The notes below the pieces were generated by a model. It did no database searches. It saw nothing but the letters and a program-made list of their open reading frames with translations, and had not been told where the DNA came from. 64,000 nt of DNA from Escherichia coli (GTDB lineage: Bacteria; Pseudomonadota; Gammaproteobacteria; Enterobacterales; Enterobacteriaceae): NCBI RefSeq assembly GCF_003790525.1, contig NZ_CP033635.1. One strand, given 5' to 3'. Below are positions 1,096 through 10,992 of this stretch, in pieces; within the stretch, counting starts at the first letter, position 1, and each line of letters begins with the position of its first letter. A program made the translations under genes and the position numbers.

Positions 1096-1450
1096 TGCCT
1101 GCACGCCTGGAAATTTCAAATGAAAGGCATATCTCTTTTACTTATTTCTGCCGCCATATATTTCCCCAAGTATAAAACATTTAACATTTCATCATAAAAG
1201 TTAAAATGTTTTATTCTCTGATAAAACGTGAACTGCATAACAAAATACAGAGAAACAAAGCCAAAAACGAATTAACGCAAACTTAAAACGAAAAATTATA
1301 ATTGTCGCCATCACTCTCCTTAACTAACCTCATTCCCACAACGTTGTTTAAATCATTAATAAATATGCATTAAGGAAAGTCAGTATGTATTTGCTTAGAA
1401 AATAAAAGCTTTTTTTCTGAGACAGGCATTCTTGTTCTGGAGAGAATATA

Positions 1451-2863: not shown

Positions 2864-4903
2864 ATGTCGTTTATTAAGCAAGATCCCCACCGTCTGGTCT
2901 GGCAACAAGACGATCGTTATCTCTGGATTGAAGCCTGGGGCGAAAACAGCTTACGCGTGCGAAGCGGCCGCCATTTACCGGTAATGCGCAATGAAAACTG
3001 GGCGTTAACTCAGGATCCTGGCGATGCTGTCGCTCATATCACCTGGGATGAAAAACAGGCAACGCTGAGAAATGGTAAAATCACTGCCATCGTAAATCTT
3101 CAGGGCCAGCTCTCTTTCTGGCGTAATGATGATAAATGCCTGCTGCAAGAGTTCTGGCGTCAACGTGGCGAAATTGGTGAAGATGAGTCAGCACACGGCC
3201 AATATGTGAGCGCTCTTAATCTACAGGCCCGTGAATTCAAGCCTATTCCTGGCGGGAAATTTACGATTAAGGCACGATTTGAAGCCAACGATGGCGAGAA
3301 ACTCTTTGGCATGGGTCAGTATCAGCAACCAAACCTGGATTTAAAAGGTTGCATGCTGGAGCTGGCACAACGTAACTCGCAGGCTTCTGTTCCCTTCCTG
3401 CTATCAAATCAGGGTTATGGTTTTCTGTGGAATAACCCAGCAATTGGCCGCGTCACCTTCGCGCAAAACGGTACGGAATGGGTAGCAGAAGTCAGTGAAC
3501 AACTGGACTACTGGATCACTGCGGGCGATACTCCGGCTGAGATCAGTGAAGCCTATGCACGAGTAACCGGTACGCCACCGATGATGCCTGATTACGCAAT
3601 GGGGTTCTGGCAATGCAAGCTTCGCTATCGTAATCAACAAGAATTGTTAGAAGTCGCACGCGGCTACAAGCAACGCAATCTTCCGATCTCGGTGATTGTC
3701 ATCGATTTCTTCCATTGGCCGAATCAGGGTGACTGGATGTTCGATCTGCGTGACTGGCCCGATCCCGATGCGATGATCGCCGAATTAAAAGAAATGGGTA
3801 TCGAACTGATGGTTTCATTCTGGCCTACCGTAGATAACCGTACCGAGAGTTATCGGGAGATGAAAGAAAACGGCTGGCTAGTCCACACCGAGCGTGGTTT
3901 GCCTATCAATATGGATTTCCTTGGCAACACCACGTTCTTTGATGCGACACATCCTGGCGCACGGGAATATGTCTGGAACAAAGCCAAACGCAATTATTAC
4001 GATAAAGGCGTGAAACTGTTCTGGCTGGATGAAGCCGAGCCAGAGTTCGGTGTTTACGATTATGACAACTATCGTTACTACGCAGGGCCAGTGCTGGAAG
4101 TCGGTAATATCTATCCGCGTATGTACGCCAAAACGTTCTTCGATGGCATGCAGGCAGCCGGAGAAAAGCAGGTGATCAATTTGCTACGCTGCGCCTGGGC
4201 CGGTAGTCAGAAATATGGTGCCCTGGTGTGGTCAGGCGATATCCACTCCTCCTTCCGTTCTCTGCGCAATCAGTTTGCTGCGGGGCTGAACATGGGAATT
4301 GCCGGGATCCCGTGGTGGACGACGGATATTGGCGGTTTCCACGGTGGCAACATACATGATCCAAAATTTCATGAACTGCTTATTCGCTGGTTCCAGTGGG
4401 GGGTATTCAGCCCAGTAATGCGTTTACATGGCAACCGCGACCCGCAAGTTTTGCCTGAACAACCCTATCGTGATGGCATCGCACAATGTCCGACTGGCGC
4501 GCCGAATGAAGTCTGGAGCTATGGTGAAGAAACCGGTGAAATTCTCACTTCCTGCCTGCAGTTGCGTGAGAAGCTGAAACCTTATATCAGTAAAATTATG
4601 GCTGAGACGCACGAGAAGAACAGCCCGGTAATGCGCACGATGTTCTTTGAGTTTCCAGACCAGGCAGAAAGCTGGAATATTTATGATCAGTACTGCTTTG
4701 GCCCGGACCTTCTCGTTGCCCCTGTAATGCACGAAGGTACACGTTCACGTGATGTCTGGTTGCCTGCCGGAGAGACATGGATCGATTTTTATACCCATGA
4801 ACACTACGCGGGTGGGCAAAAGCTTCATCATTGCGCGCCGCTGCACCAGATACCGGTATTCATTCGTGAGAAAGGGAAATATCGCCAGTTATTACCCGTT
4901 TAA
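2864..4903 (+). CDS. Glycoside hydrolase family 31 alpha-glycosidase (YicI/YihQ-like), ~679 aa
   Basis: ORF track begins at TTG 2843, but ATG 2864 has a GGGAGG Shine-Dalgarno 7 nt upstream; GH31 motifs FWLDEAEPE (candidate nucleophile Asp) and WSGDIHS (candidate acid/base Asp); 19 bp after the transporter stop, so likely one operon. Confidence 0.85.
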   Translation: MSFIKQDPHRLVWQQDDRYLWIEAWGENSLRVRSGRHLPVMRNENWALTQDPGDAVAHITWDEKQATLRNGKITAIVNLQGQLSFWRNDDKCLLQEFWRQRGEIGEDESAHGQYVSALNLQAREFKPIPGGKFTIKARFEANDGEKLFGMGQYQQPNLDLKGCMLELAQRNSQASVPFLLSNQGYGFLWNNPAIGRVTFAQNGTEWVAEVSEQLDYWITAGDTPAEISEAYARVTGTPPMMPDYAMGFWQCKLRYRNQQELLEVARGYKQRNLPISVIVIDFFHWPNQGDWMFDLRDWPDPDAMIAELKEMGIELMVSFWPTVDNRTESYREMKENGWLVHTERGLPINMDFLGNTTFFDATHPGAREYVWNKAKRNYYDKGVKLFWLDEAEPEFGVYDYDNYRYYAGPVLEVGNIYPRMYAKTFFDGMQAAGEKQVINLLRCAWAGSQKYGALVWSGDIHSSFRSLRNQFAAGLNMGIAGIPWWTTDIGGFHGGNIHDPKFHELLIRWFQWGVFSPVMRLHGNRDPQVLPEQPYRDGIAQCPTGAPNEVWSYGEETGEILTSCLQLREKLKPYISKIMAETHEKNSPVMRTMFFEFPDQAESWNIYDQYCFGPDLLVAPVMHEGTRSRDVWLPAGETWIDFYTHEHYAGGQKLHHCAPLHQIPVFIREKGKYRQLLPV

Positions 4904-7343: not shown

Positions 7344-8588
7344 CTATAGCTGTTTATTCCAGAGATGCTTGAAAATATCTAATGTGGAGACAACATTGGC
7401 AGGCGACATTCGGTTTAATGAGGATAGAAAGGGATGAGACTCCAGGAAGTTGATAAAACGAGTCGCGCTTGCTAACGTCGAATACCGCATTTCATTTGCT
7501 TTCTTGTTTCCTGTAAGGTTACAAACAGCCATTGAATAATCACGGGCGGAAAATGTACGCCAAACATTATTTCTCACGCCACCACTCAAAAACAACCGCG
7601 GCGGCGTATCATAATGAGTCGTTTTCTCGCCGCGTTCTTTCACAAATGAAATATGGCACCGGCCTTGATGAATATGCTGTAAATTAGCCATCAGACAACC
7701 ACCTAATATAAAGCACTCGTGATCAAGGTAGTGTTGAATATTTATAGAATATGCTTCAGTCAGTGCTCTAACCAGTTCAAAATGGCGATACGCCGGAAGA
7801 ACCGGTTTCACCAACATCCCCGGATCGTTTTGATGTAATATCGCCCGACCATAATCAATATCAAATAAGGTATCACGCCGCATAGTAAGTAACTCCTTGC
7901 GTTGTACGTGATGCGCCAGTGTACCTGGAGACAAACGCTCTTCATAACTTGATGCATATTGATAATGCGACTCTACCGCTGATGGAGAATAATTTGTTGA
8001 AATAGCGACGACTCTACCGCTTTGTTCTTCTGCGGTAACAAGGCTATAAAGATAGTTATTACTACCGTTAAACTTTACGCGAAAAGCGCGGGTAGATAGA
8101 GAAATATCAGAAGCAGAAGAGTATTGGTAACTTTCTTTATAGTTTACTTCCCGGGCTAGTTTCATCAACTCACGGTTAAGCCCTGTGCTATTAAGAAGTA
8201 ATAATTTACGGATATCTGCAAGTGAAGCGCCTTGATCAATCATCAATGCTAAATGTGTTCTTCGCGGCGTTGTATTTACATGATCCAGAGTGATAAAAGT
8301 TCTGGAACAATGATGACAATACATTCTCCTCTGCCCCTGAGCTGAATAGCCATACTTTTTCAGAGATGTGCTTCCGCAAGCTGAACATTGTGGAACCAAC
8401 CCTCTCCATGAATGATTAACACGATTACGATAAATATTAAGAGATCGTTCAGATATCACAGGAAACAAGTAACCGCATTCCCGACATAAAATATTTTTTC
8501 CTTGTGCAATATAATCCTGGCTATTCAACAACCCCAGGTTTTTGCATCCTGGTGTTTTGCAACAATCAACATTTACGTTGGTAAACAT
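7344..8588 (-). CDS. Uncharacterised Cys-rich protein with two predicted CxxC...CxxC zinc-ribbon modules (InsA-like), ~414 aa
   Basis: ORF track starts at 8624, but the ATG at 8588 (MFTNVNV) has AGGGAG 6 nt upstream; motifs CKTPGC...CRECG and CSACGSTSLKKYGYSAQGQRRMYCHHCSRTF; C-terminal ~300 aa with no motif I recognise. Confidence 0.7.
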   Translation of the reverse strand: MFTNVNVDCCKTPGCKNLGLLNSQDYIAQGKNILCRECGYLFPVISERSLNIYRNRVNHSWRGLVPQCSACGSTSLKKYGYSAQGQRRMYCHHCSRTFITLDHVNTTPRRTHLALMIDQGASLADIRKLLLLNSTGLNRELMKLAREVNYKESYQYSSASDISLSTRAFRVKFNGSNNYLYSLVTAEEQSGRVVAISTNYSPSAVESHYQYASSYEERLSPGTLAHHVQRKELLTMRRDTLFDIDYGRAILHQNDPGMLVKPVLPAYRHFELVRALTEAYSINIQHYLDHECFILGGCLMANLQHIHQGRCHISFVKERGEKTTHYDTPPRLFLSGGVRNNVWRTFSARDYSMAVCNLTGNKKANEMRYSTLASATRFINFLESHPFLSSLNRMSPANVVSTLDIFKHLWNKQL

Positions 8589-8628
8589 ATTCACTCCCTG
8601 CGAATACCCGGATATTATCGTCATATGT

Positions 8629-8669
8629 CAAAGAAAAGAACCTGACTCAATGTGTAACATTGAATCAGG
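8629..8669 (-). terminator. Candidate intrinsic terminator/attenuator between the sulfatase gene and the Cys-rich gene
   Basis: 12-bp inverted repeat cctgactcaatg(tgtaa)cattgaatcagg; on the minus-strand RNA the stem is complete with one G-U pair and is followed by UUCUUUUCUUU. Confidence 0.45.
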
Positions 8670-8717
8670 CGGGCATGGCCCTGAAAGGCATACATTACAT
8701 TTATTATGGTTATCAGA

Positions 8718-10211
8718 TTAGCCCCAGGTTACCGCTTCCGGTTTATCACCTCTGGCTTTCATTAATGAATCATTATCAATATCGGCTTTATACTTTAAGA
8801 ACTTACCATACATTTGTTTTTCAATGTCTGGATTTTTACCTATCTGATTAATGGTCTCAAAACGATCGGTTTTGAGGTTGTATAGGTACTTTGGCTTATT
8901 GTTACGATCGATGATCATTTTCCAGTCACCATCACGTATCGCCCATTCGTCGGTTGGATCATCCTGGAATGGCATGTCAATTCCGAAGATTAATGGCTTT
9001 TCACGTTTTAGCGCTTTGTTCTCAAGGACAGGAACCAACGATTCGCCATCAAAAGTCCGGTCCGTCGGTAATTTGAAGTTCATCATTTTCGCCAGCGTAG
9101 GCATCCAGTCCAGACCATAAACAGGCGTATCTGAAACCATTCCCTTTGGAAGATGCTTTCCGTATTTAATAATCGCCGGAACACGGATGCCACCTTCCCA
9201 GAGATTATCCTTGCGACCACGTAATCCATCAGTTTCCCCTGCCAAATTCAGTTCATAAACTTTGCGCGCTTCACGCGTTACTGGTCCGTTATCACTGGTA
9301 AAAATAACGATGGTGTTATCTTCTTCACCCATCGCTTTGATTTTATCCAGTACTTTTCCAACCTGAGCATCCAGATAACTGATGTTGGCATAATATTCTC
9401 CTGTACCACGCCAGGGTTTATCCGCCCAGTCGCCATAAAATAAATCAGGATGCTGCTTCTGATAGTCGCTCATATATTGTGAGTACATGTCGAGGTATTT
9501 TTTGGGCGAAGCCAGGGGACTGTGCACTTCGGTAAAAGCGACATAAAGGAAGAAAGGCTTACTGTCCTTTTTGTTATCCAACCAGTTGACGACTTCCGAA
9601 CTGACATACTCACCACTCATTTTATCGGAACGTGGTGTGGGTTGCCCGTTACGCAACCAGCCCGTTGGATAGACCATGCCAAAACGGGGACGCTCCTTCG
9701 CATTATCCAGAGTAGCGTCGGTAACAAAACCCGCCGTATTAACCAGTGAGTAATCAAAGCCCATATCTTTTGCCTGCGGCTGATCGGTGCGATCGCCGCC
9801 TGCATTCAGATGCAGCTTACCCATCATGGCCGTGTCGTACCCTTGCGCTTTGAGTAGATTAGCAATCGTGAGTTCATTACGCCCTAATGCCACATCTTTT
9901 CCCGTTGGGATCCATGAGCGTATGCCGGTACGAAATGGCATCCGCCCTGTTAATAGTCCCGCCCGTGAAGGAGAACTTAAGGGGGCAGGTGCATAATAGT
10001 CGGTAAATTTGACGCCTTCCTGGGCAAGCCTGTCTATATTGGGCGTTTTAACGATCTGATGTCCATATGTTGCCAAATCACCATAGCCTAAATCATCCGC
10101 CATAATGATGACTAAATTGGGTTGTTTAGTTTCGGCGGCTACGGCTGGATTAAAAGCATTCCCTGTGCAAACTGCAAGGCCGATCAAACTGGCCATTAAT
10201 GTTTTCTGCAT
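8718..10211 (-). CDS. Secreted sulfatase (arylsulfatase family), Ser-type active-site motif SSPSR, ~497 aa
   Basis: Sulfatase signature PNLVIIMADDLGYGDL, active-site block PLSSPSRAGLLTGR (Ser at the formylglycine position), second signature GYDTAMMGKLH; N-terminal signal peptide MQKTLMASLIGLAVCTGNA; start chosen at ATG 10211 with AGGGA RBS (track ORF extends to 10247). Confidence 0.85.
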   Translation of the reverse strand: MQKTLMASLIGLAVCTGNAFNPAVAAETKQPNLVIIMADDLGYGDLATYGHQIVKTPNIDRLAQEGVKFTDYYAPAPLSSPSRAGLLTGRMPFRTGIRSWIPTGKDVALGRNELTIANLLKAQGYDTAMMGKLHLNAGGDRTDQPQAKDMGFDYSLVNTAGFVTDATLDNAKERPRFGMVYPTGWLRNGQPTPRSDKMSGEYVSSEVVNWLDNKKDSKPFFLYVAFTEVHSPLASPKKYLDMYSQYMSDYQKQHPDLFYGDWADKPWRGTGEYYANISYLDAQVGKVLDKIKAMGEEDNTIVIFTSDNGPVTREARKVYELNLAGETDGLRGRKDNLWEGGIRVPAIIKYGKHLPKGMVSDTPVYGLDWMPTLAKMMNFKLPTDRTFDGESLVPVLENKALKREKPLIFGIDMPFQDDPTDEWAIRDGDWKMIIDRNNKPKYLYNLKTDRFETINQIGKNPDIEKQMYGKFLKYKADIDNDSLMKARGDKPEAVTWG

Positions 10212-10230
10212 AATTATTCCCTGATGAAAA

Positions 10231-10992
10231 TTAGAAATCATAACCAAGCATATAAATCATTTGATCGCCAAAACCATCGTAGCCCAACTTATTATCGAAA
10301 TAACGCCACGTCACACTGGCTTTCCAGCGAGGATAGAACTTCCAGGCCACTGTTAAACCGCCATTTAGCCCATTCCGACCAAATTGTTGTTCCGCATAGG
10401 CATCATTTCTGTCCAGTTCTATTTCATTCCAGTTAGATAAAACAAATTTTTCGTCAAATAACGTAAAAGGTAATACTGCTGTCCAGCCAACAACATAACC
10501 ATTCCAGCCATTTGTTTGTCCATATTTGGCTGAGACGTAGTCTCCAGATTGATTATGTAATCCAATATACGGTTTAAAAAACCCCCATGAACCATTCCAG
10601 CCGAGGTAGCCCAAACCATAAAACATATCAAGATCGTCACCCCATGAGTTATCCCATTGACCATAGATCTTGCCAAAGAAAGTCATATTGGAGTCAAAGA
10701 GTCTGACATGTGTCATAGCAGAAACGGTATGATTACGCCCCGCTACGGCATGGTTAAGCACATTGCTTTCATAAAATGAGTAAAACTCGGCTTCTTTAAA
10801 ATTCACACCAAAGTCTGCAGTCACTTTCCATACTTCACCACGATGAGTGTTAACGAAGCCACTATTCCAGTCAGCATAACCTGCATTTATTGAGCCAAAG
10901 GAACCTTTATATTCTAATGAAGAATATGCAGGAAGGTGATAGAAAATCGTTGTCAGGGCACACGCAATAAGAAGCCGTCTTTTGGCAGACAT
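10231..10992 (-). CDS. Tsx/OmpK-like outer-membrane channel protein, 253 aa
   Basis: Signal peptide MSAKRRLLIACALTTIFYHLPAYS, Trp/Tyr/Gly-rich beta-barrel-like sequence, C-terminal Phe; WDNSWGDDLD block resembles Tsx; GGAGAG RBS; ends 19 bp upstream of the sulfatase start. Confidence 0.7.
   Translation of the reverse strand: MSAKRRLLIACALTTIFYHLPAYSSLEYKGSFGSINAGYADWNSGFVNTHRGEVWKVTADFGVNFKEAEFYSFYESNVLNHAVAGRNHTVSAMTHVRLFDSNMTFFGKIYGQWDNSWGDDLDMFYGLGYLGWNGSWGFFKPYIGLHNQSGDYVSAKYGQTNGWNGYVVGWTAVLPFTLFDEKFVLSNWNEIELDRNDAYAEQQFGRNGLNGGLTVAWKFYPRWKASVTWRYFDNKLGYDGFGDQMIYMLGYDF

Follow-up and report, generated by a model that had tools for sequence, protein, structure and literature searches.

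Conserved dyad block and allele-specific inverted repeat upstream of a predicted XylR- and CRP-dependent alpha-xyloside operon in Escherichia coli

In the Firmicutes, XylR is a repressor of the ROK type that acts with CcpA/cre. Alpha-xyloside genes are found in Firmicutes XylR regulons (PMC2873477). In Escherichia coli K-12, XylR sites span about 37 bp, consist of two direct repeats and lie beside poor −35 and −10 elements, and in the divergent xylA–xylF region XylR loops two oppositely oriented sites, IA and IF (PMC3561964). At xylE, a site for CRP, tandem XylR sites and the RNA polymerase site have been described (PMC6003448). Here we consider a stretch of 64,000 nucleotides of E. coli DNA (contig NZ_CP033635.1; “the window”) in which an operon of two genes, for a sugar transporter and an alpha-xylosidase, is preceded by an AT-rich leader that contains an inverted repeat (1172–1214). 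On balance, the repeat is probably an allele-specific elaboration of a conserved dyad element at the distal edge of a XylR- and CRP-dependent σ70 promoter. The unlinked regulator of the operon is most likely XylR, acting with CRP, with its primary operator predicted at 1266–1306 and not at the repeat.

The operon encodes a GPH-family sugar transporter of 457 amino acids (1451–2824, + strand; Pfam MFS_2, E = 1.4e-77) and a GH31 alpha-xylosidase of 679 amino acids (2864–4903, + strand; Pfam GH31 domains). GPH transporters in Lactobacillaceae, Paenibacillus and Negativicutes share about 50% identity with this transporter, and a phmmer search matched the GH31 protein to the alpha-xylosidase MeXyl31 (PDB 5zn6) at 1035 bits, the next matches being alpha-xylosidases too. 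We take the gene pair to be that of xylPQ of Lactobacillus pentosus, which encodes an isoprimeverose transporter and an alpha-xylosidase. It resembles xylPQ and the Firmicutes systems in joining a GPH transporter to a GH31 alpha-xylosidase and in its tie to xylose regulation, and differs from the Firmicutes in that its predicted control is by an unlinked activator of the AraC type together with CRP. No regulator gene lies between the flanking genes rpsT and nhaR, as a first-pass annotation of the window had noted, and none is linked to the operon at any enterobacterial locus examined; control of the operon is therefore expected to come from unlinked factors. The first-pass annotation had drawn the same conclusion and looked to the repeat as the place where such a factor would bind. 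The need for an unlinked factor stands, whereas the best candidate operators are found elsewhere, in a XylR box (1266–1306) and a CRP-like box (1227–1242). A xylR gene is carried by 5422 of 5426 E. coli genomes.

Because an alpha-xylosidase releases xylose, the leader was compared with three XylR-dependent promoters of K-12, using a position weight matrix (PWM) made from their six half-sites, taken as 20-mers 21 bp apart. The best of the 127,920 positions scored in the window, at 24.15 bits, was the predicted operator at 1266–1306 on the + strand, composed of two 20-bp direct half-sites 21 bp apart, AACGAATTAACGCAAACTTA (1266–1285) and AACGAAAAATTATAATTGTC (1287–1306). The runner-up reached 12.6 bits, and true sites scored 11.0–20.7 bits when their own promoter was held out. 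The half-sites here read GAATTAACGCAAA and GAAAAATTATAAT(TG), those of xylA GAATTATCTCAAT and GAAATAACATAAT(TG). Twelve orthologous leaders from nine lineages and at least five genera, all Enterobacteriaceae, were compared. In all 12, the top match (16–24 bits) stands at +39 from the start of the CRP-like box, including the leader of Pseudescherichia vulneris, which has a different upstream neighbour. The CRP-like box itself, CGTGAACTGCATAACA (1227–1242, centre 1234.5, about −102.5 from the predicted start), is the sole match to the CRP pattern in the leader at up to two mismatches; across the nine lineages its GTGA and T..CA vary hardly or not at all, several of these lineages have TGTGA, and its spacing to the XylR box is identical in all nine.

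The region 1266–1306 has the features of a XylR operator that were checked here, namely direct repeats 21 bp apart, a weak abutting −35 element and a CRP-like site upstream. As at K-12 xylAB, xylFGH and xylE, the two repeats of about 20 bp are of the GAAA...(T/C)AAT(T)G type, the second overlaps a weak TTGnnn −35 element, CRP would bind further upstream to the same face of the helix, and there is a poor −10 element. The predicted −35 element, TTGTCG (1302–1307, + strand), overlaps the end of half-site 2 and starts at its position 15, the same position as in K-12 xylA (TTGAGC), xylF (TTGTTT) and xylE (TTGCCT); for xylE, this reading agrees with the described RNA polymerase site (PMC6003448). 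A 17-bp spacer separates it from the predicted −10 element, TAACCT (1325–1330, + strand), and TAnnnT occurs at the same spacing in eight of the nine lineages, placing the predicted start site near 1337. TATAAT at 1297–1302 was rejected as a −10 element, being the AAT end of XylR half-site 2. The promoter differs from those of K-12 in that one to two additional helical turns separate the CRP box from the XylR box, the offset being 39 bp here against 28 bp at xylF and 18 bp at xylE (our own reading for xylF), which amounts to steps of one helical turn. It also differs in having a 5' untranslated region (UTR) of about 114 nt with a conserved hairpin block, and an extra 43-bp dyad block upstream of CRP, a counterpart of which we did not notice at xylE or xylF. 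From the observed motif scores, spacing and conservation we infer the start site and that XylR and CRP bind. The resident alpha-xylosidase operon of K-12, yicJI, was also inspected: upstream of yicJ (L086 1931–2225) there is a borderline XylR-like dimer of 9.3 bits beside a TCACA half-site, and the regulation of yicJI may differ from that of the operon described here.

These sites suggest a simple scheme. An alpha-xyloside would be imported by the GPH transporter and hydrolysed by the GH31 alpha-xylosidase, and the xylose so released would activate XylR at 1266–1306. Bound at 1227–1242, in helical phase upstream of the XylR box, cAMP-CRP would add catabolite control.

The clearest predicted XylR and CRP sites accordingly lie 15–90 bp downstream of the repeat, the arms of which are where the first-pass annotation had placed them, at 1173–1185 (taaaacatttaac) and 1200–1213 (gttaaaatgtttta). 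One further base pairs on each side, giving a left arm ATAAAACATTTAAC (1172–1185) and a right arm GTTAAAATGTTTTAT (1200–1214) that form 14 pairs, leave an A bulged out at 1203 and include an exact 11-mer core (ATAAAACATTT/AAATGTTTTAT). Without gaps, 1169–1217 is a quasi-palindrome of 24+24 nt that is 79% complementary about a centre at 1193. The annotated setting holds as well: the repeat ends 237 bp and begins 279 bp upstream of the transporter ATG (1451), where about 240 bp had been given, in an AT-rich spacer of 348 bp (given as about 350 bp) with 30% G+C. The idea that it belongs to a transcribed leader is not supported, since its predicted position relative to the start site, about −165 to −123, is upstream of the promoter. 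The gapped inverted-repeat score is 12, compared with 8.0 ± 1.1 for dinucleotide shuffles of the 348-bp leader, 11 of 1000 of which reach 12. The repeat is therefore real and locally unusual at about 1 in 100, a rarity that is not remarkable given that all AT-rich spacers of the 64-kb window had been scanned in the first pass. At up to two mismatches, three copies of the inverted repeat were found elsewhere in the 64-kb window, two of them inside a low-GC open reading frame (ORF), and no partner at the other end of the operon; in each of the 73 genomes that carry this allele the repeat is single-copy. No match to the CRP consensus TGTGA-N6-TCACA at up to two mismatches was found inside 1172–1215. 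Two short ORFs over the repeat, a 40-amino-acid minus-strand frame (1116–1238) and a 26-codon plus-strand frame found by eye (1206–1286), were set aside, as their start codons are missing in the other E. coli allele and in other genera.

Comparison between genera revealed a different object beneath the repeat. A distal dyad block at 1172–1215, delimited by anchored stacks and column counts and symmetric about 1193, carries four pentamers of the TGAAA/TTTCA type: H1 (TRAAA, 1173–1177), H2 (TTTCA, 1187–1191), H3 (TRAAA, 1195–1199) and H4 (TTTYA, 1209–1213). Their pattern, TGAAA-N9-TTTCA-N3-TGAAA-N9-TTTCA, covers 43 bp, with copies of the same orientation 22 bp apart. The H1 hexamer is kept in eight to nine of the nine lineages, H2 and H4 are conserved and H3 is weaker; the left arm of the repeat holds the H1 hexamer, ATAAAA (1172–1177; consensus nTRAAA), and the right arm the H4 hexamer, TTTTAT (1209–1214). 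When leaders were anchored on the CRP box and columns counted if identical in at least five of six lineages, identical columns made up 7% upstream of 1171 (the background), 51% across 1172–1215, 50% of the CRP box and 59% of the XylR box. For the block this is 22 of 43 columns, against 1.6 ± 1.3 (maximum 8) in 2000 random-offset trials. Similarity between genera begins abruptly at the left edge of the block, and no insertion or deletion occurs between 1172 and 1306 in eight of the nine lineages, the interval from the block to the CRP box being shorter by 5 bp in P. vulneris. The dyad symmetry is likewise retained, H1 and H4 being complementary in 86% of cells and H2 and H3 in 67%, compared with 35–48% when slid.

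The arms of the long palindrome fare otherwise. Only their outer hexamers, ATRAAA and TTTYAT, are conserved; 1178–1185 is not, and the inner eight pairs hold in just one to three of the nine orthologues. Covariation over the full repeat did not exceed that of shuffles, with 64% of cells pairing against 62% and, in a second test, 76.4% against 76.2%. Over the left arm the window shares only about 40% identity with the commoner E. coli allele, which has none of the inner pairs; megablast identity between the two alleles starts at 1187. Escherichia whittamii, which shares the window allele, lacks the innermost three pairs. Position 1212 is T in the window allele only, where it perfects the symmetry; eight of the nine lineages have TTTCAT. 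As far as these alignments tell, the conserved object is the four-pentamer block, and the long palindrome belongs to a single allele. The proposal of a palindromic operator is thereby kept in part: the symmetry is non-random and the outer hexamers are conserved, but the full arms are not, and they do not lie near the predicted core promoter.

The gain in symmetry from 6 to 14 bp per arm, confined to this allele, is probably a mutational by-product. Correction of quasi-palindromes by template switching is a known mutational mechanism, and the allele resembles its products in that several seemingly compensatory differences in a single lineage make a weak symmetry near-perfect, though no intermediate allele was found among these sequences. 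The left arm also contains a 7-bp tandem repeat, AACATTT twice (1176–1189), which reaches into H2 and may record past slippage in this allele. Such observations could be carried further, to the view that the extended palindrome is a functionless, neutral quasi-palindrome perfected by template switching or slippage, with the pentamers just bendable or curved DNA or a target of nucleoid proteins. The restriction of the inner eight pairs to this allele, the break in identity between E. coli alleles at 1187, in mid-repeat, and the change at 1212, which perfects the symmetry by departing from an otherwise invariant TTTCAT, all agree with that view, as does the homogeneity of the 73 carriers, which are at least 99% identical over 1130–1260 and give no sign of ongoing selection (polymorphism being uninformative at this level). 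We nevertheless consider it rather improbable. Conservation of the block equals that of the CRP and XylR boxes, a repeat score this high is reached by few shuffles, and specific G and C positions are kept at fixed spacing in eight of the nine lineages, which is more than generic curvature needs.

Because specific letters are conserved at fixed spacing, protein binding on duplex DNA is indicated, and the repeat, if active, would work as protein-bound double-stranded DNA and not as a hairpin. A role as a nucleic-acid hairpin, whether as a second rpsT terminator or processing site, an attenuator of the operon or a cruciform, has in its favour that the repeat folded as single-stranded DNA (−8.4 kcal/mol, z = −4.25) is more stable than all 200 shuffles. 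An Rfam scan of 900–1600 at a permissive E-value gave sub-threshold matches only, and no family at its gathering score; those over the repeat include weak matches to microRNA-precursor hairpin families, all far under gathering scores, and merely mirror the palindrome. The stem, however, is made of A/T pairs but for two G–C pairs, its loop is 14 nt long and it lacks a proper U tract. It also follows the strong intrinsic terminator of rpsT (GCCCGC-GCAA-GCGGGT then a T run, 1073–1094, + strand), the only terminator found by a terminator scan, and precedes the predicted promoter. Together with the lack of covariation, these features make a hairpin role very unlikely.

The distal block is most likely a protein-binding element, perhaps a weak inverted XylR site. 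In the first set of sequences, the minus-strand 20-mer at 1196–1215 scores positive for XylR in nine of nine (1.3–8.5 bits, against 0.5 for the 99th percentile of the leader background). When the proximal sites are added to the matrix, this fixed position gives the top half-site of the block in five of the nine lineages (4.4–10.2 bits, above the 99th percentile of the background), and a second minus-strand half-site 22 bp away, also above that percentile, reaches 6.2 bits in three of the nine. The arrangement, in which an inverted XylR-like element is followed by a CRP box and this by a XylR site ahead of the gene, recalls the xylA–xylF region. It differs in that the upstream element here drives no gene, lies about 92 bp from the proximal site as against some 161 bp in K-12, has scores well under those of true XylR sites and has no TAAT box; a looser likeness is to looping by AraC between araO2 and araI. 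Our favoured but tentative suggestion is that the block is a weak auxiliary inverted XylR site, which would cooperate with the proximal site or form a loop with it over the CRP box, as the two sites of the xylA–xylF region do. Binding by another unlinked transcription factor or by a nucleoid protein is possible to a similar or slightly greater degree, and what remains of our expectation goes to a block with no specific function. Taken differently, there is a chance, well short of even, that the block supplies a third input beyond proximal XylR and CRP, as the operator of a further unlinked regulator or as a distal XylR loop site. Comparison by eye with the consensus sequences for Zur, ArcA, IHF, TyrR, Cra and OmpR yielded at best a half-site, not conserved in other genera.

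Several points weigh against this interpretation of the promoter and its distal edge. The XylR-like scores of the distal block are low (1.9–4.4 bits in the window allele, and nothing in L093 or P. vulneris) and mostly restate the conserved TGAAA, the TAAT box being missing. The alignment of the six K-12 half-sites was made in this analysis, the consensus in the literature being given in a loose form only. The predicted start, −10 and −35 elements rest on weak hexamers, with 7 of 12 positions matching, and a σ70 scan of 1000–1500 returned no promoter at threshold. The CRP box has two mismatches in this allele and is not significant alone, the 64-kb window having 21 matches at up to two mismatches where 25 are expected. 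Finally, nine lineages are few, and confined to one family.

A palindromic operator for a dedicated, non-XylR unlinked regulator, bound as a dimer or tetramer on TGAAA-N9-TTTCA by a protein of, for example, the IclR, ROK or DeoR type, would give a second, operon-specific input. The dyad symmetry, with four half-sites over 43 bp, is what such an operator would show, and the centre of the block (1193) lies 41.5 bp, about four helical turns, from the centre of the CRP box. The hexamers ATRAAA and TTTYAT in the outer arms are those of the KdgR box (ATRAAA-N5-TTTYAT), but here they are spaced by N9 inside a unit and by N31 from one flagged arm to the other, which does not fit the N5 of KdgR, and the operon has no link to the metabolism of pectin or 2-keto-3-deoxygluconate (KDG). 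Similarly, the central TTTC-N5-GAAA has TT and AA at ±5,6, the sole invariant positions of the 23-bp quasi-palindromic NagC/Mlc operator (PMC4288165), but this criterion is too weak in AT-rich DNA, although it holds about 1193 in eight of the nine lineages. Neither resemblance identifies a binding protein. The block is also far upstream of the predicted promoter, which would be unusual for a simple repressor, and its inner arms are not conserved. A second copy would be expected to turn up elsewhere, a check that the first-pass annotation had suggested; allowing one mismatch, the window contains two matches to TGAAA-N9-TTTCA against 3.1 expected, and so no excess within the 64 kb. We regard a dedicated operator of this kind as unlikely, and prefer the XylR- and CRP-dependent promoter with a conserved distal block. 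Exact copies of TGAAA-N9-TTTCA were seen about 85–146 nt upstream of transporter homologues in Propionispora (L037 3840–3858) and Lentilactobacillus (L065 3875–3893); the L037 copy is like the H1–H2 unit of Citrobacter. These occurrences are not significant against other spacings. An apparent enrichment of the motif upstream of Firmicutes homologues (two exact matches against 0.07 expected, eight against 2.0 at one mismatch) was discarded, a spacing control having removed it: N4 gives 13, N1 7 and reversed N8 9.

The leader holds a second conserved element downstream of the predicted start. The most conserved stretch of the spacer is a 5'-UTR block, GCTTAGAAAATAAAAGCTTTTTTTCTGAG (1393–1421, + strand), 30–57 nt before the ATG, with the pattern GCTTAGAAA(A/G)TAAAAGC..TTTTTCTG(A/G)G. 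It contains a putative 8-bp RNA hairpin, CUUAGAAA (1394–1401) with UUUCUGAG (1414–1421), which belongs to the minimum-free-energy fold; the stem pairs in 95.5% of cells, and its U-A/U-G changes work only on the + strand. No Rfam family matched the block. A metagenome scan with the 5'-UTR pattern recovered four contigs, all of them one of the two E. coli alleles, and no new lineages.

Of 5426 complete E. coli genomes, 639 (12%) carry the operon, always in the position between rpsT and nhaR, as two alleles that are 12.5% apart: the window allele in 73 genomes and the other in 566, including ST131. Proteins of the rarer window allele are 99–100% identical to those of Escherichia sp. E1V33 and E. 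whittamii (loci L002, L004 and L005 compared), and this sharing suggests exchange with cryptic Escherichia clades. In strain 2016C-3878, whose leader is identical to that of the window, the IS30-family element ISApl1 interrupts the GH31 gene (L001 9556–10530), which leaves at least one carrier with an inactivated operon. The order rpsT–operon–nhaR/nhaA is also found in Citrobacter and Enterobacter. The operon likewise comes after rpsT in Superficieibacter, L093 and L094, where the downstream gene is different or not seen. In P. vulneris (L091 1142–1500) a Na/Ca-exchanger gene with its terminator takes the place of rpsT ahead of the operon, which keeps the CRP box, the XylR box and a degenerate distal block, 5 bp nearer the CRP box. 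Since the sites are kept beside another neighbour, the regulatory region evidently moves with the genes. Distant homologues (L097–L099, about 54–59% identity) have unrelated contexts, with linked LacI- or AraC-type regulators or insertion-sequence flanks; with other contexts and regulators they were uninformative about the enterobacterial upstream block. In one of them, a metagenomic contig (L098 348–5353, 59% identity), an AraC-type regulator gene stands directly upstream of the GH31 and transporter genes, an order that fits AraC-family control of such operons elsewhere.

The start of the window corresponds to the E. coli ribF–rpsT region, and the operon stands between rpsT (ribosomal protein S20; 780–1043, + strand, the upstream same-strand neighbour by the ORF list and the RefSeq annotation of an identical locus) and nhaR and nhaA on the other strand. 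The spacer between rpsT and the transporter ATG is 407 bp long; identity with K-12 ends near 1102, after ...TTTTTTTATGCCTGC, and the 348 bp at 1103–1450 are absent from K-12. This edge raises the question of whether a mobile element left the repeat as its scar or terminal repeat, or whether it served recombination at an island border, given that it lies 70 bp inside the K-12 junction and that its left arm coincides with the start of the similarity between genera. That origin is scarcely credible. The repeat is single-copy in carrier genomes and is not matched at the operon's other end, integrase and transposase genes are absent, and the rpsT–nhaR/nhaA position is common to Citrobacter and Enterobacter, with the rpsT side shared by Superficieibacter, so that the locus looks old and often lost, not recently inserted. 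Beyond nhaA, a low-GC stretch on the minus strand (7344–10992, 37–44% G+C) carries three ORFs, for a 425-amino-acid protein with no Pfam match, a 508-amino-acid sulfatase and a 252-amino-acid Tsx-like channel protein; the K-12 content at this position is presumably different.

What emerges is an ordinary regulatory region with one unexplained part. The promoter is predicted to behave as the known XylR/CRP type, to which the extra conserved block upstream, with a possible role of its own, is an addition, and nothing in it would surprise a specialist; the repeat is a modest puzzle that leaves current models of bacterial promoter control unchallenged. Were the block indeed a distal operator or a XylR loop site, a strain-variable alpha-xyloside operon would have a third regulatory input. 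The operon probably lets gut Enterobacteriaceae use alpha-xylosides derived from xyloglucan, and its predicted wiring into the core xylose regulon through an unlinked activator would explain how a two-gene cassette can do without a regulator of its own.

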